Part shown: piece after piece, positions 15,368 through 48,200 of the stretch
Position numbering within the stretch: the first letter of the stretch is position 1
Layout of the letters: every line of letters begins with the position of its first letter
Source of the DNA: Convolutriloba macropyga
Taxonomy: Eukaryota
Reading direction: 5' to 3'
DNA: 64,000 nt
NCBI RefSeq assembly: GCF_964194025.1
Contig: NC_134482.1
Coordinates: forward strand, 13,826,001 to 13,890,000
Translations under genes and position numbers: made by a program
Notes under the pieces: generated by a model
Told to the model about the DNA's origin: nothing
Databases searched by the model: none
What the model saw: only the letters and a program-made list of their open reading frames with translations

Positions 15368-15980
15368 TGTAGTAAACCATAGAACTTATTGTATGACATA
15401 TTGAACGCACAATTAGAAGTTTTCACAACAAAGGGGAGAACAAACAGAGATGGTTACTAAGCGTAAACCGGATTGTAACAATATAAAGAAAGTATCATAA
15501 ATGATGGAAATCATCACGGAGTTTCATCTCGACGCGAGACGTCAATGAATGTTTGTTCTTGATGGAATTCGTCAGGCAGGTAAACTTGTTATCTGTTAGT
15601 TTAACTAAAAGGAACCCGTGCGGTAGAAAGTAACGACGAGAAAATCACAAAGAGATTAACGAAAATGGGCAAAAGTACCTAAGAATAATCAACCATTGAT
15701 AGGACCGAAACCAAAGACAATAATAAAAACTGAACGTCATAAAATTGAGCTGCCTTTCGTGGCTGCTTTTTTCAAATAGTTTTTCATCTTCTCATCTGTT
15801 AAAACTCATTGTATTCCAATCACTAATTCTAACTCTGTATTAAAAAGTTTGATTATTACATCTTCATAATTAATTTAAAGTCCTATACTAAGAAAATTTT
15901 CATCAGTAATCTTGAGGTTCAAAGTGCTTAAGAAACCCCCCAACCGAAACCGATACCGTACACAGTGCACGGATATTACA
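15368..15980 (+). repeat. 5' LTR
   Basis: TG...CA termini (TGTAGT...ATTACA); colinear with 26134-27048. Confidence 0.9.
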
Positions 15981-15981
15981 C

Positions 15982-15995
15982 TGGTGACAGAGATT
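15982..15995 (+). promoter_or_regulatory. Primer-binding site
   Basis: TGGTGACAGAG starts 1 nt after the LTR end (TGG complementary to tRNA CCA). Confidence 0.75.
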
Positions 15996-16823
15996 TTAAA
16001 AAATTTAACATTTTGAAAACTTTAACAAATTTGTCGGTAGGAAGATGCAAATAAAAAGCACTTGCACTCAAGAACTCGAGATTTGAATAAATCCCGAGAT
16101 AAATACACAAAATACAAACAAGATTTGGTATAACAAATAATCAATTTTCATCAATTTCCACCAAATTTTGTGTGAGTCAGTTGTAGAAGTCACAGCGTAA
16201 TCAGTCGCAGGAAATTAGTTTTCACAAGTGAGAATTTTGTCGCGTGTGGCTAATTATTACTCGTTGTTGGAGAGAGAAAATTCCTTGTGTAAAAAGAGCG
16301 CATCAGACCAAGTGAATTGATATAGAGAGTTTCCTCTAGTTGTCTTCGTTGATAATTGAAGTTGGTTGCCACTGCATTCGTCTTTTTTGTCTCAGAAATG
16401 CTTTTCCTTTCGATCTTGGTTAATTAATTGACTTGTAGTAAAGCACCTAATATCATTCTTGTCGTAATTACGAAAAAATATATATTATAAACATTAATAA
16501 AACAGGACAAATCAATTTCAGCTAAAATCATATTAAAATACTAAAGAAAAGTTAGGTGGGACAGTCATCTATAAGAGTGTAAACAAAAACTTCTTTTAAA
16601 TTAAGGAGAAAAATAAGTAAAAAGGAAATACCATATCAAAATAAGCGTTAGGTTTTGTAACCAAAAATTTTAAACAATAAAAAAAGGTGCTATAGAAATT
16701 CAAAGGTAAAAAGAAAAACACCTTCCAGTGACTATCTACTTGGTAATTATTTTATAGAAACTATTATTTTCAACAACTAAACAAAGTTTTAAAAGGGTTA
16801 CAATACAAGTAGGGGAACAGTAA

Positions 16824-17500
16824 AATGGCAAGAGGCTCGACCTCTAGAATGCTATTACCGGAAGCGTTTACGCGTTCAAATGACTTGGAAGGCTACATGA
16901 CGCATTTTGAGCTATAGGCGGAACTACAAAAGTGGGAAAGTACAGAAGAAGATCCAGCCGGCGAATTTCATGAACGGCCGCATTACCATGGAGTTCTATC
17001 GCACTCTACCGCGAGCTACAAGAGAAAACAATGATGATTGCGTTAAAGCTTTCCGAGAACACTATAGTCAAAAAACGGTCGTTTTCCAGGGACGGCTAGC
17101 TCTCCGCGTACAGCAACCAGGGAAAAAACTGACCGATTTTTGGTAGATCCGGGATGAAACAACAGATTTTGGTAGAGGCTGTCACGAAGCTTGTGAACCA
17201 ATTGTCAGTAGATGACAAACAGCGAAAAAAACTGTGGAAACTAAGCTATGGAGCGATGTAGTTCCCCGGGACGGTGGGGTGACAACAGACGTGATAGAGG
17301 ACAGCAACAAGATCGTGGGTTCAACGAGCCGCGGCAATTTCCAACATCAGGATCTGCTCACCAAGACAGATCTTTCGGAAGAGATGAACCGTCTAGAAAG
17401 AACGACAGGCAGGGTTTCAAGTGCAGAGCCTGTTGAAAAGAAGGACACATTTGGTGGAATTGTCGAAATTGTTGTCTATATGAAAACTCCCAACACTTGA
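16824..17500 (+). pseudogene. gag: gag remnant
   Basis: MARGSTSRMLLPEAFTRSNDLEGYMTHFEL*AELQKW N-terminus; zinc knuckle FKCRAC*KEGHIWWNC at ~17415-17465. Confidence 0.75.
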
Positions 17501-17559
17501 AAGGAAACTACCCTTTCAAAAAGAAAACCACCAAGAACTGTAATGTCATTAGAGTTTTT

Positions 17560-20500
17560 TCTACAAACACAATTAAATATCCAAACCCAGAAATTATACC
17601 TGATTGGAACAGATGCGTGGGATTAATAGAGAGTGGAAGTTGTATATCGTTTTTGAGCTGGTCCACATACGAAAAACTGGGCAAACCGAGAATTGTGCAA
17701 ACAAACACAAAAATAGTGTTAACAGCCAATAACTCAGCTGTCAAAATAATAGGGAGAGTAACGCTGTTGCCACAGTTGCAACCAAGATTACCGGAGCATG
17801 AACAGGAATTTGTTATAACTGCAGACGAAGGTATAGAATGTCTGCTGGGAATTGATTTCCTGAAAACCAATAAATGTGTATTGAACTTACACGAAAGAGA
17901 AACTATACAGCAGTCACTTTAAAACTTCAATACCTCTTACCACAGAGAGAACGCAAGGTGTTCAGGTTTTTGGCATTGCGGAACAAATTTTTTTATACAG
18001 AGTAAAAACGAAAGTCTGATGAGAGTTAGACTAGCTGCCGAAAACAGAGAACAAATTCCGGAAATGGAAGGATTGGTGAAAGCAATTGAAAATTTTGAAA
18101 TAAAGACTGATTTGTTTTTAGCCGCCTGTATGATATCAATGAAAGGTGGTTCAAGTTTAACAAAAAGTGTTAATTATAACGAATGCACCACTGGCCGTGC
18201 ATAAAAGCATTAAAGTAAGAACCTATCTTGAAAACAAACAAAACTTAGTAGTGAATAGAATTTTCACAAGTCAAAAAAAGACACATTGGAAACTTTTCAA
18301 ATGGGAAAATTCGCAAATTTGGAAAGTTCTAATCTAAATAACCAGCAGAAAGAGAAAATACAGGAACTGTTCATGAGACATCAACAGGTCTTCTCCTAAA
18401 ACTCGAATGACTTAGGATATTGTGACAAAATTATACACCAAATTAAACTCAACAAATATGCACAGCTGGTCAGAAGAAGTTGTTGCAGTATGAGTTTTGA
18501 TAAAAGAAAAGCCTTGAAAAATTTTTTCGAAGATTTGGTTGATGCAACATTAACTGAACCAACCCATTCGTATTGGGCAGCACCATAATTATTGGTGTAA
18601 TAGAAAGATTGGAGCTAAAGACTAATAGTAGATTACTGAGGTTTGCACAAACAAATCAAGAAGAAAACCAGTTGGCCGCTACCAAGGATAAATGACGTTA
18701 TTGACACTCTAGACGGAATTGTTCCTTTTCTAATATCGATTTGACATCGCCATTTTTTCAAATGACGCTGAATGAAAAGTCGCAGAAGTTGACAGCTTCT
18801 GTAACTCCAACAGGACTCTACAAGTGGAAGAGACTATCCATCGATTTGGCGTCACCGCCAGGAGATTTCAAAATTTTTTTGGAATTGATCATGGCGGGAC
18901 TCGCCTATGAAGTGACTTTTGTATAATTGGATGAGAAAATTATCTTCTGTAGATCATTTAAGGACCATCTCAGCCGTCTAATTCTCGTACTTGGACAATT
19001 TAAAGACGCTGGATTGAAAATCAAAAGGCTCAAAATAAAGATTTTTCAGGAAAATTTCATTTCCTGGGACCCATTGTATCAAAGAAAAGGCGTAGAAGTT
19101 GATCCAGAGAAAGTAGCCGCAGTAAGTAAAATGAAAATCCACAAACAATGAAATGATTGATAGCTGTATTAGGACTAGTTGGTTTTTCTAGAAGATTCAT
19201 ACAAGATTTTGAAAAAATAGCAGTGCCGCTTTATAAGCTATTAAACAAAAAAACGTTTTTATGGGAGCAAACAGGTTGAATCAGCAGTTGAACAACTAAA
19301 ACAAACACTACACAAAGCACCAATTTTGAGTTATTCGAATATGGATCCCCATACGTTACCCACCAACGTCTCTCTGTTTGACATTGGCGCAACTGTTTCC
19401 CAAAGATAACAATGGGGTGAAAGAGTTATTGCATACGCAAGCAAAACGCTCAGCAAAATTCAACGAAACTATTCTGACAAAACGAAAACTTTTGCAATAG
19501 TTTATTCCACTCAACACTTCAGAAATTTTCTTCTGGGACAAAAGTTTTTAATTTTTACCGATCATAGGGCCCTCAGGTGGTCATATAGTTTTAAGGAACC
19601 AGACAGATTATTGGCCGGATGGATAGAAAAGCTCGAACAGTTTGATTTTGAAATCAAACACGAAGGGTTAAAGAAGATCCCTCACGCAGGCTGTCTGACG
19701 CGAGTTCCACAGACTGAAGACCAAGTCAAAGACTGCGATCGAGTGAGCCAAGTAAATACAGAAGACCAAAATATTTGTTCCATTGGACTAGGGAAATCTG
19801 TTGAGCAACTAGTTGAACATCAGAAAAATGCAGCCGACCTAATTTATTAAGAAACTGGATTGAGAACGGGGAACAACCTCAAATAAAAAACATGACAGGA
19901 GCCTCTAGGGAACTGTGGAAACTTTGGACTGATTTCAGAAACCTACGAAATGAAAACGATCTAATTAAGAGACAGAAACGTATTGACAAATTTAACAACT
20001 TAACAGAAATATTCATTCAGAGATCATTTGTAAAAGAAATTCAACCTTTCCCTGATGATAAAGGCGGACATTTTGTAGGGCTAAGACATTTGATCGGGTT
20101 CGAAAACGATTCTACTGGCACGGGAGGTGAAAAGATGTCCACAAGTGGGTAAGCTCTCGCGAAGTATGCTGTCAAAAGAAGTCTTCACGCCAGAAACATA
20201 TACGCAGACTGAGAACGTGGAAACCAAGTCACCCATTTTGACAAGATGCCTTGGACATCATGGGAACTTTACCCGAGCCAAGTGAAAACAAATACATTCC
20301 CTTAGTTGGAGATCAGTTTACAAAAATGTATGAAGCAATTCCCATGAACAGCCATGAAGCTTCAAAGGTAGCTAAGGCTTTCGTAAACGTATGAGTTTCA
20401 AGGTTTGGTTTTCCGGCAAATCTCCTTTGCAACAAGGGCAGTACCTTTATGTCGAATCTTTTTGAGAACGTGCGTAAAAAGCTGGGTATTAACAGGATAT

Positions 20501-21100
20501 CAACAACAGCTTAACATCCTTAAGGAAACACAATGATAGGGCGCACCAGTCGCACAATCAAAGAGAGTCTAACAAAAAGTGGTTGAACATCACAACACCT
20601 GGAGCGACTACCTTCCGCCAGTTATGATTGATTACAGATCATCAATTCACTCTGTTACCAAGTACAGCCAATTTTATCTCCTTTCTGGACAATCATGCGC
20701 ACTGCTGATTGATTGCATCTATCAAACAGTACAAACCAAATTCTACACGTTCTTGAGTGACTACGTTGAATGCTTGACAGGCGAACTACAAACGTGCCAT
20801 GATACGGGAAAGCATGGATGTGGAGGAAGAATGACAAAAAACATACTATGATCGTAGCACATTTGGACCAAAATATGAAGTAGGTGATTTAGTAGTGAAG
20901 TTCAACCTCACAATGAAGACTGGCCAGACAAAAAAAATTAAATCTTTTCACAGTGGACCGCAGGTAATACGTGAATTAGCCAATGATCTAAACTTTGTTA
21001 TTGAAGATGAGAAAACAAAAAAAACAAAAGGTTCACTACGATCGACTCAAACTTTTTATCAGTAGATGTGCTACCATTGATAAAAAAAGAAACTAAGAAG
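17560..21100 (+). pseudogene. pol: pol remnant (aspartic protease, RT, RNase H, integrase)
   Basis: PR LIESGSCIS...LLGIDFL; RT WAAPIILV, RLIVDY, WPLPRIND, G.EVDPEKV; RH IAYASK, TDHRALRW, GWIEKLEQFDFEIKH; IN H..GGHF, LDIMG.LP, WSDYLPPVMIDYRSSIHS. Many stops and frameshifts. Confidence 0.92.
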
Positions 21101-21612
21101 GCAAAATGTGAGCCGAGAATACCACAAAATGACTTTACGGAGGTTAAAGATTTTGTGGAAATTGAAGTATTCACTCCAAAAATGAATGACACAGAAACAA
21201 GAGAATTTAATCCTGCAGGGAATAACACTCAAATTAACTCTAGTACTTAAACTAACAATGAGACAGTCAAAGAAGATTTGTTTGAAACACCAATGGGTGG
21301 GAGTATCAATAAATACTAACACAAACAACAAGAGCAGAAGCACAATGATACCTGCGCCTAAAGTAGCTACACAACAGAGGGAAATAGCCTGGCGGCAACA
21401 TACGAAAAGAGTGAAGGCAAGGAATTTCCAAACAGAAGCACGTCTTCTGCTTCGCAAAATCTTACCAAACGACGATTTCAAAAAAAAAGTCCGTCGGGAA
21501 TAAAAAGACCACGGAAACTCAATGATTATTTTCTTCTCAAGGATAACGATTCAGATGAGAAATTTGAAAATGACGTATTTTCGTAATCAGGTGATACGGC
21601 AAAATGCAGAGT

Positions 21613-24600
21613 ATGTGGAACCCACATTGAAACGTGCAGCTGAACTGCAAACTTCTCCAATTGGTTAGCATATCAGGTTCTTCACAATCCTTAGAGATTG
21701 TGCGGTTTGATTTTGAGAATATTCTGCAGACGCAAAAGTTTGCCATTTCGGAACCAACGAAATGAGAAACGTCACAAATAAATGAGGAGCAGGTAAGCAA
21801 ATGAGGACTCATCAACGCCGAGAGCAGCATGAATAAACTAAAATACTGCATGTAGAGAGCTGCATATACGGCAGCTGTGCTGAAAAAAAACTGGTTGGTA
21901 TGACGACGCAACTTACTTAAACAGTAAATCACAAATAATTCCAGCGTTTTACGCAATAAAAGAATCAGTCTTATGGCAGGCACAAAAAGCACGGTTACCG
22001 GGTCTTGTTGACTTCAATTTCAATGCTCCCAAAAAAATCATTAATGAGATGAATGTTGGCCGAACCGACGCAGAGTTTGTTCAGAAGGTATCAAAAACAT
22101 TCATGAGAGGCGGAGATGAGACAGTAGTGAATTATGTTTACCCCGTGGATTGGATCAATCCAAAAGTTGAGACAAGGAGAAGTAAAATCATGTTAAATGC
22201 TGAGATTTTCATGGGGACTATGTTCATTGGAACCAGGGAAGAAAATGAAGGTACATGGTTATACTTCAAACACCCTCTGAATCAGGAGAACCTGCCTTGT
22301 TATATCAAGGAGACACATTTTAAATAGCTTCAGTATAATATTAGTTTGACCAAGACAGAAAACTAAATATCTTAACGATAATTTAATTTTCAGAGTCGAT
22401 ACCATCAAAAATATTCCGCGCTAGAAATAAAAATTAATTGACGAGCAAATTAGACAGAAAAAAAATTAGTTGTTCAGTTGAAAAACAGGACAAAACAGAT
22501 AGACAATTTCCAGCTTTTCGAAACAATCCAAAGAAATTTGTTTTAGAATCCAAAAACTTTGACGGCCACGGAACAAAATTTCTCACCAACAAATATATCT
22601 GAGACAGATCCCAGGGACCTAAAACTCGACCAACTTTTTGTTTGGGATTTTTGAGGTGTGTTTGAAAATTTGAAACAAACAGAGTTATCAAATTGTAACA
22701 TAGAAAAACTGCACAGAGCTATGATTTTAACAAAACCAATTATCGGAAACTCAAAACAAAATTAACCAAATCAACAAAACGCTCTGGGTATACCCGCACA
22801 AAGAGCAAGAGAAATACTTTATATCCATAGGTGCGCTAAAGTTATCGTACATGTTGTCGAAAAACGGTTTTGTTCCGAGCAAGTACTAATTAGGGTGTCT
22901 TCTGACAACAGTTCAGAAGAAATTAGATACATGGGCCCTATTTCTTGAGTATTCTACAGAAATTTCACACTAATCAATTGCAGCCCCATGTACCCGAACG
23001 CTCTTGAATCGCGGAATGGAAAATGGATAACATATGGCCGACAAATACAACTGATTGATAAACCCAATGATATGCCTCATTAAAGATTTAACGTCATTTG
23101 GTCATTTGGTTAACGTCATGACGACGGAACCCACATTGAAACGTGCAGCTGAGCTGCAAACTTCTCCAATTGGTTAGCATATCAGGTTCCTCACAATCCT
23201 TAGAGATTGTGCGGTTTGATTTTGAGAATATTCTGCAGACGCAAAAGTTTGCCATTTCGGAACCAACGAAATGAGAAACGTTACAAATAAATGAGGAGCA
23301 GGTAAGCAAATGAGGACTCATCAACGCCGAGAGCAGCATGAATAAACTAAAATACTGCATGTACAGAGCTGCATATACGGCAGCTGTGCTGAAAAAAAAC
23401 TGGTTGGTATGACGACGCAACTTACTTAAACAGTAAATCACAAATAATTCCAGCGTTTTACGCAATAAAAGAATCAGTCTTATGGCAGGCACAAAAAGCA
23501 CGGTTACCGGGTCTTGTTGACTTCAATTTCAATGCTCCCAAAAAAATCATTAATGAGATGAATGTTGGCCGAACCGACGCAGAGTTTGTTCAGAAGGTAT
23601 CAAAAACATTCATGAGAGGCGGAGATGAGACAGTAGTGAATTATGTTTACCCCGTGGATTGGATCAATCCAAAAGTTGAGACAAGGAGAAGTAAAATCAT
23701 GTTAAATGCTGAGATTTTCATGGGGACTATGTTCATTGAAACCAGGGAAGAAAATGAAGGTACATGGTTATACTTCAAACACCCTCTGAATCAGGAGAAC
23801 CTGCCTTGTTATATCAAGGAGACACATTTTAAATAGCTTCAGTATAATATTAGTTTGACCAAGACAGAAAACTAAATATCTTAACGATAATTTAATTTTC
23901 AGAGTCGATACCAGCAAAAATATTCCGCGCTAGAAATAAAAATTAATTGACGAGCAAATTAGACAGAAAAAAATTAGTTGTTCAGTTGAAAAACAGGACA
24001 AAACAGATAGACAATTTCCAGCTTTTCGAAACAACCCAAAGAAATTTGTTTTAGAATCCAAAAACTTTGACGGCCACGGAACAAAATTTCTCACCAACAA
24101 ATATATCTGAGACAGATCCCAGGGACCTAAAACTCGACCAACTTTTTGTTTGGGATTTTTGAGGTGTGTTTGAAAATTTGAAACAAACAGAGTTATCAAA
24201 TTGTAACATAGAAAAACTGCACAGAGCTATGATTTTAACAAAACCAATTAACGGAAACTCAAAACAAAATTAACCAAGTCAACAAAACGCTCTGGGTATA
24301 CACGCACAAAGAGCAAGAGAAATACTTTATATCCATAGGTGCGCTAAAGTTATCGTACATGTTGTCGAAAAACGGTTTTGTTCCGAGCAAGTACTAATTA
24401 GGGTGTCTTCTGACAACAGTTCAGAAGAAATTAGATACATGGGCCCTATTTCTTGAGTATTCTACAGAAATTTCACACTAATCAATTGCAACCCCATGTA
24501 CCCGAACGCTCTTGAATCGCGGAATGGAAAATGGATAACATATGGCCGACAAATACAACTGATTGATAAACCCAATGATATGCCTCATTAAAGATTTAAC

Positions 24601-25060
24601 GTCATTTGGTCAACTTCCGCACCAATGGAAGGGTTTTTTAATGAAAAAAACCTGGAACTCAGCAAGAAGTTCCAAAGATTAAGGCATTCGAGAAAAACGA
24701 AAACAGGATGAGAAATTTTCCTTGCACAACGAGATTTGTATGAATATGAGACTTTAGAGTATTTTAACACGGACTTGAAATAAAATCATCAGCGACATGA
24801 ACTGCTAATTTTTGAATACTTTGATAGTGAAGTGAAACAAATGTGACATGCGGCCAGGGAAATGACCATCAGTTTGATGACTATCTTTATTGTATCTAAA
24901 ATCATATTTTGTTTGGTACGTGTGTTTCTTTCAGTCGATATGCTACGCAGTGGCACCAATCCTGTGATTGCGCTGCAACCCATCAACCCAATGGGGAAAC
25001 TAGGTCATTTTCATCATCTAAAACAACGTTCTAAAGAACTAAAATTGACAAGAAAGAGAA
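21613..25060 (+). pseudogene. env: Decayed envelope glycoprotein, herpes gB/chuvirus-like class III fusogen type (5' ~1.5 kb duplicated)
   Basis: Signal-peptide-like start, then IVRFDFEN..TQKFAISEPTK*E (cf. GYDC...T.SL.EP..C). Later VIVHVVEKRFCSEQVLI...RYMGPIS..YRNFTLINCSPMYP...NGKWI...KP..MP...W....GFF, and a TM segment ISLMTIFIVSKIIFCLV at ~24868. About 650 codons once the duplication is removed. Confidence 0.6.
21617..24612 (+). repeat. Near-identical direct tandem duplication (21617-23104 / 23126-24612)
   Basis: Offset 1509 bp, only scattered substitutions, and a 21-nt filler at the junction. Confidence 0.95.
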
Positions 25061-25288
25061 CGATCGCACGGTTTGATGGTAATCAAAACCTTGAAGTTAT
25101 AAAAACAAAAAAGGCTAAATCTGTTTTTAATTTTTTTATTCAAGATCGTTGAATTCAAGATCGGTAATACAAACATTGAAGTTATAAAAGCAAAAAAGGC
25201 TGTACCAGACATGACAAAAATTGAGATTGACGCCTTAGGTTAATTTAAGTGTATTATATGTAGGAGTGGTAAAGCCAACAATTGGCGA

Positions 25289-26096
25289 TTGTTACTACTA
25301 CCTAGCCGAGTTGTTCGATGTCAAGTCAATAGTCAGGCACCAAGTGTATTGGATTGTTGGAATAACTTCAAATATACCCCAAGATACGTGGTGCCATTGA
25401 CGAAAATACAACCACCAAATATAGTGGATAGAGCCGCAGTTTGTGTTATGGAGTTAAACGTAATGCATCAGCGAATTGAGGAACAGCAAAAGAAGATTCA
25501 CAACAGCGAAGTGCTGGGAAACAGCTCCTGCAGTTAAAATTTGAAGGTCAAAAGTTAATTAACCAATTACTTGACAACAAACGACTGCTTGATTACAATG
25601 GGAATCAGCAGGAGTCCTACAGGAGGCAGGTTAAAATATTGAAAAAAGAGTTGAAGGAGATTACGAATGTAGCCGAAACAAAGTCAAGAGAATGTATCGC
25701 TCTAGTGGATGAGCGGGAGTGTTTTTCTCGGGAGTTAGAGAAGGCCGAGTTAGATATCAGAAAACTAGGGAGCAGGCTAAGAACAGAGCAGACCTCAAAG
25801 AAGGTCATCCAGAGGAGGCTGGAGGCAATCAATGGAGACAGTCGACCTCCAAATTTTTTTGAGCTGCTATTCTTGCCACTTGGGGCAAATACCAGCACTA
25901 TCCAGCAACGTTTCAAAAAGTTGTCAATGCTCTGTCATCCAGGCCCGTTTCGTCGGGAGGACTTTTTCAAATTTATTCTTCATGAGAAACAAATAAGGAA
26001 AACGAGGAGGCCCGTAATAATTATGACAAGTACGGGATTGAAAAAGCAGAGGAATATTTGAACTCAAAAATGGAACCTGGAAGCTCTTGCTTGTGA
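25289..26096 (+). pseudogene. Coiled-coil + DnaJ (J-domain) ORF inside the Gypsy element, with about 2 frameshifts
   Basis: Heptad-rich KKELKEITNVAE...ELEKAELDIRKL, then NFFELLFLPLGANTSTIQQRFKKLSMLCHPG...EDFFKFI and, in a shifted frame, ENEEARNNYDKYGIEKAEEYL. Stop at 26096, 25 nt before the PPT. Confidence 0.8.
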
Positions 26097-26133
26097 GTTA
26101 GTGGAACACTCAAATTTTCTAAAAAAGAGGCAG

Positions 26134-27048
26134 TGTAGTAAACCATAGAAATTAATCTATGACATGCTCATTAAATGAATATTGAACGCATTATTCAAAA
26201 TTTTCAAAATAAAGGGGAGAACAAAAAGATAACCGGATTTTGACCATATAAAAACAGCATATGAAAACAATATATAAATATTGATGGGAATCATCACGGA
26301 ATTTCATCCTTACGGGAGACGTCAAAGAATGTTCTTGACGGGGTTCTTCAGGCAGGTAAACATTATCTGCTGGTTTAACTAACAGGGTCCCGTGCGGTAG
26401 AAAACAACTATGAGAAAATCTCAAAGAGATTAGAGAAATTGGTTAAAATAGCCTCAGCCTAAGAATAATCAACCATGGATACGACCGAAACCAAAGAACA
26501 CGACCGAAAGAAGTGTAATACGACCGAAACATGAATACGACCGAAACAAGTGTAAATAAAATGTTGTAAATGTGATTTAAACTGTAAATAAGTACAAAAA
26601 TTCGAGTTTATTTTAACTCATTTCTTAGAATTATTGTCAAAGACAAGTTTATATTTTTTGTAAATGTTTCATTTAATTTTTAAACCTGACGATGAACGCA
26701 ATGTTCGAAAACGTTCCTTTTAGTTTATCAATTTAAGTTTTAATTGACAATTACTTCTTTGCACCAAAGACCATACTAAAAACTAAAACCTCATATAATT
26801 GAGCTGCCTTCTTTAAATAGTTTTTCATCTTCTCATCTGTTGAAACTTCCTGTATTCCAATCAATAATTCTAACTCTGTATTAAAACGTTTGAATATTAC
26901 GTCTTCATAAATAAATTAAAGTCTTAAATAAAATTCTTCAAAATTAAATTAAAGTCATGAAATAATTGTTTCATGAGTAATCTCGAGGTTTAAAGTGCTT
27001 AAAAACCCCAACCCACACCGTAACCGTACACATTGCACGAATATTACC
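26134..27048 (+). repeat. 3' LTR (diverged, with a 265-bp insertion)
   Basis: Preceded by PPT AAAAAAGAGGCAG; colinear with the 5' LTR apart from 26498-26762. Confidence 0.9.
26682..26720 (+). ncRNA. Minimal hammerhead ribozyme motif (Penelope-like), one stem I mismatch
   Basis: aaac CTGACGA t GAAC-gcaat-GTTC GAAA ACGT TC cttt. Confidence 0.55.
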
Positions 27049-45229: not shown

Positions 45230-48200
45230 TTTTTTACAGAAAAAATGGTGCATGAGCTTCTACAAAAATAATTTATTGGCAGCGCCTAAAGTTGGCTACC
45301 ATCGTCCCTTTCCCACTAATATATAATCAAACGGAGAATTGCTTTCGAGGACACAATAATGACACAACACTTGACCGCCTCCGGTCAATACTTGACTGGA
45401 AAAAATTATGCAAAAAAAATTTGTTGACATATTTGACTTTTCTATTGATTGGTTATTCTCACGTTTTTGAGAAATGCGCCTTAATTTCGAAACCATAGTG
45501 AAACTATTTGGCGTCCCTCTAACAGCCGGTTATCCGCATTGAGCAGGGTACATTAAAATTGATTCCTTGTTTGTCATTTGAAAGTTTTGTCAGTCGTTAA
45601 TTGGTTACGTACACAAGCGGGCGGCTTCTGAGTTTTCTGCCAATTTCGGATTGTTTCTTAGTCTTCTGGTATTTTGTACAATTTTTCTTTGTCAGCTGAA
45701 AACCAGCATTTGATTGAACTACTTATATCGCTCCTCGAGGAGCCGATATGTACATCTTAGTATTTCACTGATTACTTATTGTAATTGAACAATATCATAT
45801 TTGCAGCTTTTTATCGGTGTTTAGAAAGCGTTCGATTTTTGCAGGAAACGTTGATCTGTTGTTGAGGAGTTCACAGTTAGACGGTGCTTTTCTGATTAAC
45901 AATAACAGAGTGCAAGGCTTCTATCAGATCATTTTCTAACTCATATCTATATCATGACTGCGTAAACATAAGTGCGTCATCTTTGGTACTGCATTAATGG
46001 ATAACCATTTGGTGTTTTTCATCTTACATCATTGGCATATAAATCGAATAGTAGTGCTCAGAGTATTGTTCCTCGTGGTACACCTTGATAAAGTTAAATC
46101 AAGTCCGATTCATTGCCGGTAGCTCTTGTTTTCTTGTGCTGTTCGGACAAGTAGTCAAGTGTCAATATTTGATTCATTGCGCTGAATCTTTTTTCCTCAA
46201 GCTTCGAAATCAAAATGTTGTTATCAATTGAATTAAACGCTTTAGACAGATATAGTAATGCATTTGTTTTATATTTCTTCAATTTGAAATCTGAGGTTTT
46301 CAGTGCTGAAAATTAGAGTATCCATCTTATTTTTTCAATCGAAAACCAAATTAAGTTTCTGGGGAATTTTTTTTCTAATTAAAATTTGAACTATTTGATC
46401 TCTAAGTAAAATCATTTGAAAACTCCAGAAAGTGAACTAGTTATTGGTATAGTTCTGTAATTTTCAGGATTTATGCTAGCTTGATTTTTGAGTAGTGGCG
46501 TAGTGTCGGCTTACTTTATGATACTGGAAGTATTTTACCTCGATAGGGTGCATTAATACATCATTGAATTCTATAAAGAGCGCAAGCAGGGTTATCTGTG
46601 GGTCCTATCGGTTCAAAGTACGTAAGCGTTTTGAAATAATGTAAAACTTCTTTTGATGTGATAAAGAGAACTAACTGATTTTCTCTTATATATTTTATCC
46701 GATTTAATCGGCCTGCTTTTACCAAAGTAAGCACGTAATTTAGAGAATCGGAAAGACACGTTCACTATTTGTTTGCTGTCATACAGAGATTCACCAGAAG
46801 ATTTTTATGGCTGGAAATTTTGCTATTATCTACAGTTGTGTTTCGAGTACCGTTATTGAGAGGCCATTTTTCGTGTCGAGATAGATTTTTTGTTTGGAAA
46901 GGTAATTATTTTTAAAACACGCATAAAGCTAGAGCACATCACAAAAAGACAGAGACCAACAAATCAATCTTTTTTCGGCAAAGCAAATTATTCAATCATT
47001 GATTTCACATCAGAACTAAGGCTTTGTGACTATAATTTCACATACAATATGGAGCATGCAGTAAAATATGCTCAGTTCAACTCAACTTTGTCTTCTATTG
47101 TTCAAAAACTATGCTTTTGAATGATAGAAGACAAAGTTGAGTTGAACTGTGCATATTTTTCTGCATGCTTCGTTTTGTGTGTGAAATTCTAGTCACAAAG
47201 CCTTAGTTCCGATGTGAAATCGTTGATTGAATCAGTTAACTTGCCGAAAAATTTGATTATTGTTTCTACTTTTTGTAATGCGATCCTGTTTTATTGTGCC
47301 TATTTGGTACGGTGATCAATTTTATTTTCAAAATCAAATATGTGAACATTTTTGTCGATTGGGTAATTACCTTCCGTTATATAAACAATGAGGTGTTTTT
47401 TTCGTGCTATTTTTTGCTTTCCAACTTTTGGATCATAATGGATGAAAAATGTATCTGAACCGTTTTTGTTTTTGTCGTTCAAGTAATTGATTAATAGCCG
47501 CGGTCAGCCTCTCAAATGGCTATTATTTGGTCGCTCTCCTTTTTTAACTGGCCTTTTGATCACGTTTTTCTTTTTACATAAGTCATTTCTAACTTACCTC
47601 GCTCACTGTTTCAACTGAGGGGATTCTAAATTCTTTCACGCATGGAATTACGCCATGTAGTGAATACGTGAATATCGAAAGAGCAAAATCTAAAGAAACG
47701 GGATAAACCGATAAAGCTCGGTCATTAAGACGGAAAGCATTAGGTTATTAAAGTTCATTAGAGCGATTGATAGCTGATATTAGTATTAAGCTTAATACCC
47801 TTCAGTTTAGAAGCTGAAGCAAGCATGAGTTCGGAATTTAACTGAAACTGCAAACTGAGTTAGAACAATTTTTGAAACTTAGGAAAAAAATTTTGTCGAT
47901 TTCTATCTCTTTTTAATGGCCGCCCTCATCTTCTCAGCCGGCTATTATAGCGCTCCTAATTTTTTTTTACTTCGTTAAACTTTTTTTCGCTTTACCCATT
48001 TTGCCGCTTTTTCGACATTTTGCGTGAAATCTGTGACTTCTCTGGGCTAGTTTCACTCTTCTGTCATTCTGCTCAAAGTCCTTTTAAACAGCAGCTGCTC
48101 AGCAAAGCAATTCAAAATGAAGGGAGTCAGTATAAAAAAGTCAGAAATTGAAACGGGATAAACCCATAAAGCCCATTTTGAGATGCCCGGTACTTGAACT

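Follow-up and report, generated by a model that had tools for sequence, protein, structure and literature searches.

We analyzed a stretch of 64,000 nucleotides from the Convolutriloba macropyga genome (contig NC_134482.1, positions 13,826,001 to 13,890,000 of the forward strand), called here the window. Its positions 15368-27048 hold an old, broken copy of a Ty3/gypsy retroelement, and the family of this element was recently active. On balance, we favor the reading of a dead copy from a four-gene family. In this family, the fourth open reading frame (ORF4) encodes a conserved J protein, which is predicted to bind host cytosolic Hsp70 and likely directs it at the element's own particle. The element itself is of a known kind, and gypsy elements with an envelope gene (env) of the glycoprotein B (gB) type are already in print. 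The new part is ORF4, an accessory gene under selection.

All parts of the window element lie on the forward strand. The long terminal repeat (LTR) at the 5' end (15368-15980) presents TG...CA ends and has TAAG directly before it. The 3' LTR (26134-27048) is directly followed by TAAA. These flanks are a worn 4-bp target duplication, and 495 of the 575 aligned columns of the LTR pair are identical (86%). After the 5' LTR come the primer-binding site (PBS; 15982-15994), with one mismatch against the form found in young copies, and gag-pol (16825-21586), with a CCHC knuckle, protease, reverse transcriptase (RT), RNase H, and integrase. The env gene (21604-25243) belongs to the class III fusion glycoproteins (chuvirus G or herpes gB type) and is broken and lengthened. 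ORF4 follows, with a small N-terminal beta-barrel (25266-25420), a coiled coil (25421-25850), and a J-domain (25851-26081) that reads HPG in place of the histidine-proline-aspartate (HPD) motif. An acceptor-like AG lies close to the 5' side of both env and ORF4. The polypurine tract occupies 26119-26133. The initial annotation had described this same layout, from LTR and PBS to purine tract and LTR, and both LTRs lie at the ends it gave. The 3' LTR also carries a foreign insertion of about 250 bp near 26496-26762. Because two other loci (L018 and L030) contain it at 70-91% outside elements, it counts as a small repeat in its own right.

The decay of this copy is extensive. Read through their stops, the pol frames still match the Pfam families of protease, RT, RNase H, and integrase, in gypsy order. 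Compared with an unbroken sister copy, gag-pol shows 19 stops, 26 frameshifting indels, and one 233-bp deletion. The env gene shows 14 and 18 stops in its two aligned parts, and ORF4 has six frameshifting indels. Two 1,488-bp units (21617-23104 and 23126-24612, 99.2% identical) form a tandem duplication over 21617-24612, covering the 5' part of env. This duplication is much younger than the insertion of the element. The J region of the window reaches only E=0.007-0.07 for DnaJ, under the cut-off, and its env is too broken to give any Pfam match. Since these two genes score poorly here, the case for env and the J-domain rests on unbroken sister copies.

We searched the host genome (G000, 1.18 Gb) for such copies. 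The J-gene candidates were 447 in DNA (40 scored) and 1,971 in protein (138 scored), which are not copy numbers. We read 10 old copies, together with the 20 that best match an intact ORF4, here family A. Among these 20, the ORF4 frame is open in 17 and a 688-689-codon env in four. All frames are open in one (L035), whose LTRs are 99.8% alike. In intact young copies, the gene order is gag-pol, env, and ORF4, and the gag-pol of an intact sister copy is a single frame of 1,686 codons. The LTRs with TG...CA ends, the target duplication, the tRNA-type PBS, and the polypurine tract are all present, although some young copies begin with TA. The 4-bp target duplication is perfect in 14 of the 18 sister copies with both ends found. 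In young copies, the PBS complements the 3' end of the host tRNA-Ser(GCU). Among solved proteins, the intact gag-pol is closest to the Ty3 Gag-Pol (E=1e-112), with caulimovirus and retrovirus enzymes ranking lower. A BEL/Pao identity was rejected, as the 12 Pfam families on the intact gag-pol include no BEL-specific domain and the top match is Ty3.

The two extra genes are a trait of the family, given that env adjoins the J gene in 29 of the 31 family-A copies examined. The HPD motif is kept in 25 of these 31 and lost in six, the window copy included. The search for intact copies with the same gene order, proposed in the initial annotation, thus succeeded. Neither outcome that it had named as refuting was seen, since most family members hold both extra frames and unbroken copies match gB/chuvirus-like and J-domain profiles. 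Its view of the lineage as a relic does not hold, because young intact copies exist. That the lineage is infectious, as it also proposed, we infer from env only. Some unusual loci were seen as well. The tRNA-Ser(GCU) 3' pattern of the element's primer has at least 43 matches in an array at G000:C10:2.70-2.80 Mb. One copy (L013:8084-9241) is reduced to LTR, PBS, ORF4, and LTR. Tandem arrays of env tail, ORF4, and LTR lie on C10 near 58.95 Mb. Finally, a host-type DUF1907 protein (P0109, four cluster members) is predicted with the C-terminal half of the element J-domain as its tail, either as an insertion artefact or through exonisation.

The env of intact copies has an N-terminal leader, a single membrane segment (587-605), and six N-glycosylation sites. 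It matches the Monjiviricetes fusion family PF24664 in Pfam (E=2e-14) and falls within viral fusion glycoprotein clusters in Atlas (0.96; 211 of 256 features). In a fold search, the env model, although weak, ranks chu-like glycoproteins ahead of all other viral folds (E=1e-22 to 1e-23). Likewise, the top match in the PDB is the herpes gB of herpes simplex virus (E=5e-9). Pfam and fold search place env among the class III fusion proteins of the chuvirus/gB type, in agreement with its reading from the broken copy.

The intact ORF4 is one protein of 280 residues. Its model (predicted local distance difference test, pLDDT, 90; predicted template-modelling score, pTM, 0.38) presents a barrel at residues 9-47, a single helix of about 140 residues (59-197), and a J-domain at 205-279. 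The coiled coil and the J gene of the initial annotation are real, and the barrel is an addition to it. The J-domain of intact copies matches the Pfam DnaJ family PF00226 (E=2e-12; up to 4e-13 among unbroken sister copies). It has the four helices of the J fold and places HPD between helices II and III; its model superposes on the J-domain of Sis1 at a root-mean-square deviation (rmsd) of 1.2 A. The nearest solved sequences are the J-domains of Sis1, DNAJC5, and DNAJA1, with E about 1e-7. The barrel resembles Tudor, PWWP, and SH3 folds and carries several basic residues. Its fold matches, all of middling score, are a PWWP domain (Z 7.9), the barrel of the Hpy99I endonuclease (Z 7.6), and the TDRD3 Tudor domain (Z 7.5, rmsd 1.3 over 49 residues). 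Profile and sequence look-ups found no sequence match for the barrel in Atlas or among PDB sequences. No named protein among the best 150 matches combines a barrel, a coiled coil, and a C-terminal J-domain. ORF4 shows no signal peptide and no hydrophobic or membrane segment.

Docked on the host cytosolic Hsp70 (L208) with ATP, ORF4 scored 0.69, and the best of three controls 0.00. At least 95% of the contacts are common to the runs, and the partner pLDDT is 84. In the model, H233-P234-D235 of ORF4 contact residues 393-395 of Hsp70, in the linker. The docking mark was attained by 51 of 78 solved pairs and 2 of 108 mismatched pairs. Because J-Hsp70 complexes are already solved, passing it means likeness to them and not binding. 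We consider it very probable that ORF4 recruits the host Hsp70.

We estimated selection by comparing old and young family-A copies column by column. The ratio of replacement to synonymous change (dN/dS) of ORF4 is 0.089 (confidence interval 0.04-0.16; 36 synonymous and 13 replacement changes). By parts, the J-domain has 0.09 and the coil 0.10, and the barrel shows five synonymous changes and no replacement. The other genes have 0.071 (gag), 0.066 (protease, RT, and RNase H), 0.072 (integrase), and 0.11 (env). Private changes in old or dead copies give 0.66-1.02, as decay predicts, with a neutral control of 0.8. Among young copies, the ORF4 variants that are shared have 0.17, against 0.62 for the private ones. 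It means that ORF4 is under purifying selection as strong as that on env and pol. The initial annotation had suggested a dN/dS analysis of env and the J gene across copies, and both turn out to be constrained. With the J gene constrained in this way, a one-off capture is excluded.

Two further families were reached in G000 through distant ORF4 homologues. Family B is identical to A at 76% in RT, 31% in env, and 27% in ORF4. It reads HPDAGG, and env adjoins ORF4 in 15 of 18 loci. For family C, the values are 78%, 37%, and 32%, with HPDKGG and env next to ORF4 in 16 of 19 loci. Across these J-type families, the barrel is the best-kept part of ORF4 (41-51% identity, against 21-32% for the coil and 30-36% for the J-domain). 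The J Pfam score is above the cut-off in A, B, and six of seven homologues from outside the genome, and the outside homologues keep HPD at about 30% identity. Two of them (P0160 and P0187) and one env (P0289) have no close match among the scored G000 candidates, so they come from other hosts. The clusters of the J protein P0149 and of env P0289 both list contigs of 9,213 and 3,326 bases. This is indirect evidence that env and the J gene are also linked in that source. A search for relatives with DNA context found none among viral contigs. In 80 metagenome loci, there is no RT, env, or barrel match, and the loci read are ordinary DnaJ-type genes or chance frames.

Families D and E are more distant (RT 61%, env 27-28%). 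They have many copies and LTRs 99.3-100% alike; in family D, dozens of near-identical env frames are among those listed. Their fourth frames (L191:8304-9293, 330 residues; L194:8119-9339, about 390) begin with a disordered segment, continue with a coiled coil, and end in a tail that is basic and rich in serine, with no Pfam family and no J-domain. Profile comparison detects no homology between these proteins and the J-type barrel. Likewise, the idea that the barrel derives from the C-terminal domain of integrase was rejected. The two profile scores (8.6 and 9.6) stay under the top column-shuffled values (13-15), which leaves a visual likeness only. A coiled-coil frame occupies the slot after env in all five env families examined. 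In an RT tree of the five local families, A, B, and C are split from D and E at 100/100. This tree is unrooted and fits either a gain or a loss of the J-domain. In a J-domain tree, a branch with 98/95 support separates the 12 ORF4 J-domains and one unnamed fragment from 48 other J-domains, with a bootstrap that had yet to converge.

The starts of env and ORF4 suggest splicing. Nine of the ten env and ORF4 starts of families A-E have, within 25 nt, a T-rich tract that ends in AG, against a background of 8-16%. In family D, TTTAG|ATG is found at both starts, and the ORF4 of family B has no in-frame ATG ahead of its barrel. Env and ORF4 may thus be made through alternative 3' splice sites, and ORF4 is likely expressed from a spliced RNA. 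Among 15 of 198 joints (four runs from one study, on contigs of unclear kind), no GT-AG joint to env or ORF4 was seen, from which no conclusion is drawn. The deletion junctions of 33 mapped copies show no clear donor-acceptor pair of a spliced retrocopy. In L013, the PBS is joined to the acceptor region of ORF4, with a short duplication at the joint and no visible donor.

In J proteins, the part outside the J-domain selects the client, and the J-domain triggers Hsp70. Without a signal peptide or membrane segment, ORF4 would stay in the cytosol or nucleus. A role in the endoplasmic reticulum in folding Env is rejected on the same lack of a signal peptide. The barrel would grip a client, the coiled coil would space or oligomerise the protein, and the J-domain would fire Hsp70 to remodel the client. 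This client could be the Gag/RNA particle, at its assembly, its hand-over to Env at the membrane, or its uncoating after entry. For the J-domains of RNA viruses, a role in helping polyproteins fold and virions assemble has been proposed (bioRxiv 2022.02.15.480533). This proposal, together with the slot filled in all five env families, makes the own particle our favored client; the filled slot fits a role tied to the enveloped cycle. Granted that ORF4 recruits Hsp70, the chance that the particle is its client falls a little short of even.

Several points weigh against this picture. No evidence names the client. The pTM of the whole ORF4 leaves the arrangement of its domains unfixed, and the env model is weak (pLDDT 57), with template-modelling scores of 0.15-0.26 for its fold matches. 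Since resemblance to an intact ORF4 was the basis for picking the young copies, their shares of open frames and of HPD are inflated; this choice affects the open-frame counts more than the between-group dN/dS. The acceptor rule was set post hoc and three of the ten starts were hand-placed, so we only infer splicing. Finally, families D and E share the env type and are young and abundant, yet their ORF4 has no J-domain. It means that not every relative requires one.

ORF4 could instead act in counter-defence, which we judge unlikely. Here, the Tudor-like barrel would bind PIWI/Argonaute or other silencing proteins, and the J-domain would turn Hsp70 on them, weakening the small-RNA silencing of the element. 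The matches of the barrel to TDRD3 Tudor and PWWP agree with this, as does its conservation across families, higher than that of the J-domain. In flies, Hsp70 reportedly dislodges piRNA factors and releases transposons from repression (bioRxiv 423210). However, Z values under 8 may reflect a common small barrel, since the endonuclease Hpy99I matches equally well, and no Tudor sequence in the PDB matches the barrel profile. Genes that antagonize the host frequently evolve fast, whereas ORF4 has a dN/dS of 0.09.

A role as a nuclear regulator seems unlikely too, to a similar or slightly greater extent. The barrel would bind chromatin or unspliced element RNA, and Hsp70 would strip a repressor or license RNA export, in the manner of the polyomavirus T antigen or of CERV from Cer1. 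CERV is a spliced accessory protein required for genomic RNA export (PMC10309623). With two acceptors, an element must regulate its spliced versus unspliced RNA. The basic residues on a PWWP/Tudor-like fold are compatible with this role, as are the basic, serine-rich tails of the ORF4 proteins in D and E, but the homology of these proteins to the J-type barrel is undetectable. Finally, a captured host DnaJ fragment that rides along without function would explain the HPD losses in 6 of 31 copies and the success of D and E without a J-domain, but it is highly improbable. The selection result, a dN/dS of 0.09 where neutral decay gives 0.8, refutes it, barring an alignment artefact in the comparison of old with young copies. 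The HPD-bearing ORF4 kept in three families and in outside homologues at about 30% identity, and the separate branch of the ORF4 J-domains, also speak against it.

Returning to an Hsp70 co-chaperone with a client of its own, we think it quite likely that an enveloped gypsy clade, present in more than one host, consists of 'complex' retroelements. These would carry a spliced co-chaperone gene whose barrel chooses the client, either the own capsid or the host small-RNA silencing. Enveloped gypsy elements are an invertebrate parallel to retroviruses. A fourth, selected, and probably spliced gene means that some of them evolved accessory genes, as complex retroviruses did. We know of no J-domain gene in BEL/Pao elements with a chuvirus glycoprotein. 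Anakin and related elements of that group captured a glycoprotein of the same class, PF24664 (cited in PMC13524379 and PMC12440569), whereas the present element is gypsy.

The initial annotation knew of no described gypsy family with the whole combination. Only the J gene is new here, as a gB-type env has already been described for gypsy elements from across the animals (Chary and Hayashi, eLife 2026, PMC13524379). These 'ancient errantiviruses' share with our element the Ty3/gypsy pol, the gag-pol-env order, the LTRs, a tRNA PBS, multiple young copies, and a gB/chuvirus-like env with a signal peptide and one C-terminal membrane segment. Unlike it, they are described with three frames. The main text of that paper contains no occurrence of DnaJ, J-domain, chaperone, or accessory, and seven of its supplements none of DnaJ. 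Its described search targeted gag, pol, and env only, so a fourth frame could lie unremarked in its elements. The paper states cell entry of gB-type elements as unknown. A literature search (subscription journals and Repbase outside it) found no J-domain gene in an LTR element, nor did a term look-up in PMC13524379, PMC12440569, and PMC8616336.

Other known systems share single traits with ORF4. The J-domains of polyomavirus T antigens and of 11 RNA virus families are likewise a mobile genome's own Hsp70-activating domain, fused to others (bioRxiv 2022.02.15.480533). Those described belong to DNA viruses or RNA virus polyproteins. Unlike them, ORF4 stands as a gene of its own in a reverse-transcribing element, and its J-domain lies at the C-terminus behind a barrel and a coil. 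ORF4 extends virus-encoded J-domains to such elements. CERV (PMC10309623), made from spliced RNA, and the ORF3 enzymes of bdelloids (PMC5408684) are also extra genes maintained by an element near its 3' LTR. However, those described are an RNA-export factor, an esterase, an exonuclease, and a dUTPase, none of them a co-chaperone, and they replace env, whereas ORF4 follows it. Cellular class C J-domain proteins have the four-helix J fold with HPD and a separate client-binding domain, but only the J-domain is common to both (E about 1e-7). The small size, solubility, and modular build of ORF4 make its client and its activation of Hsp70 directly testable. The sister families with and without a J-domain in one genome offer a natural control.

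Other features were seen nearby. On the reverse strand of the window, positions 53-880 encode a protein of the poxvirus A32 family of packaging ATPases (E=2e-5 in Pfam). Its neighbor, a frame of 238 codons on the same strand (1538-2254), belongs to no family. Both are probably the edge of a Polinton-like element. In another locus (L093:6158-8609, reverse strand), two frames resemble a different envelope, with a basic cleavage-like site, then a hydrophobic stretch, and a C-terminal membrane segment. They have no Pfam match and look F-type by eye. Finally, the window presents dense dispersed and tandem repeats (units of 77 and 126 bp) from 29400 to 64000, with a 137-bp inverted repeat at 46971-47251.

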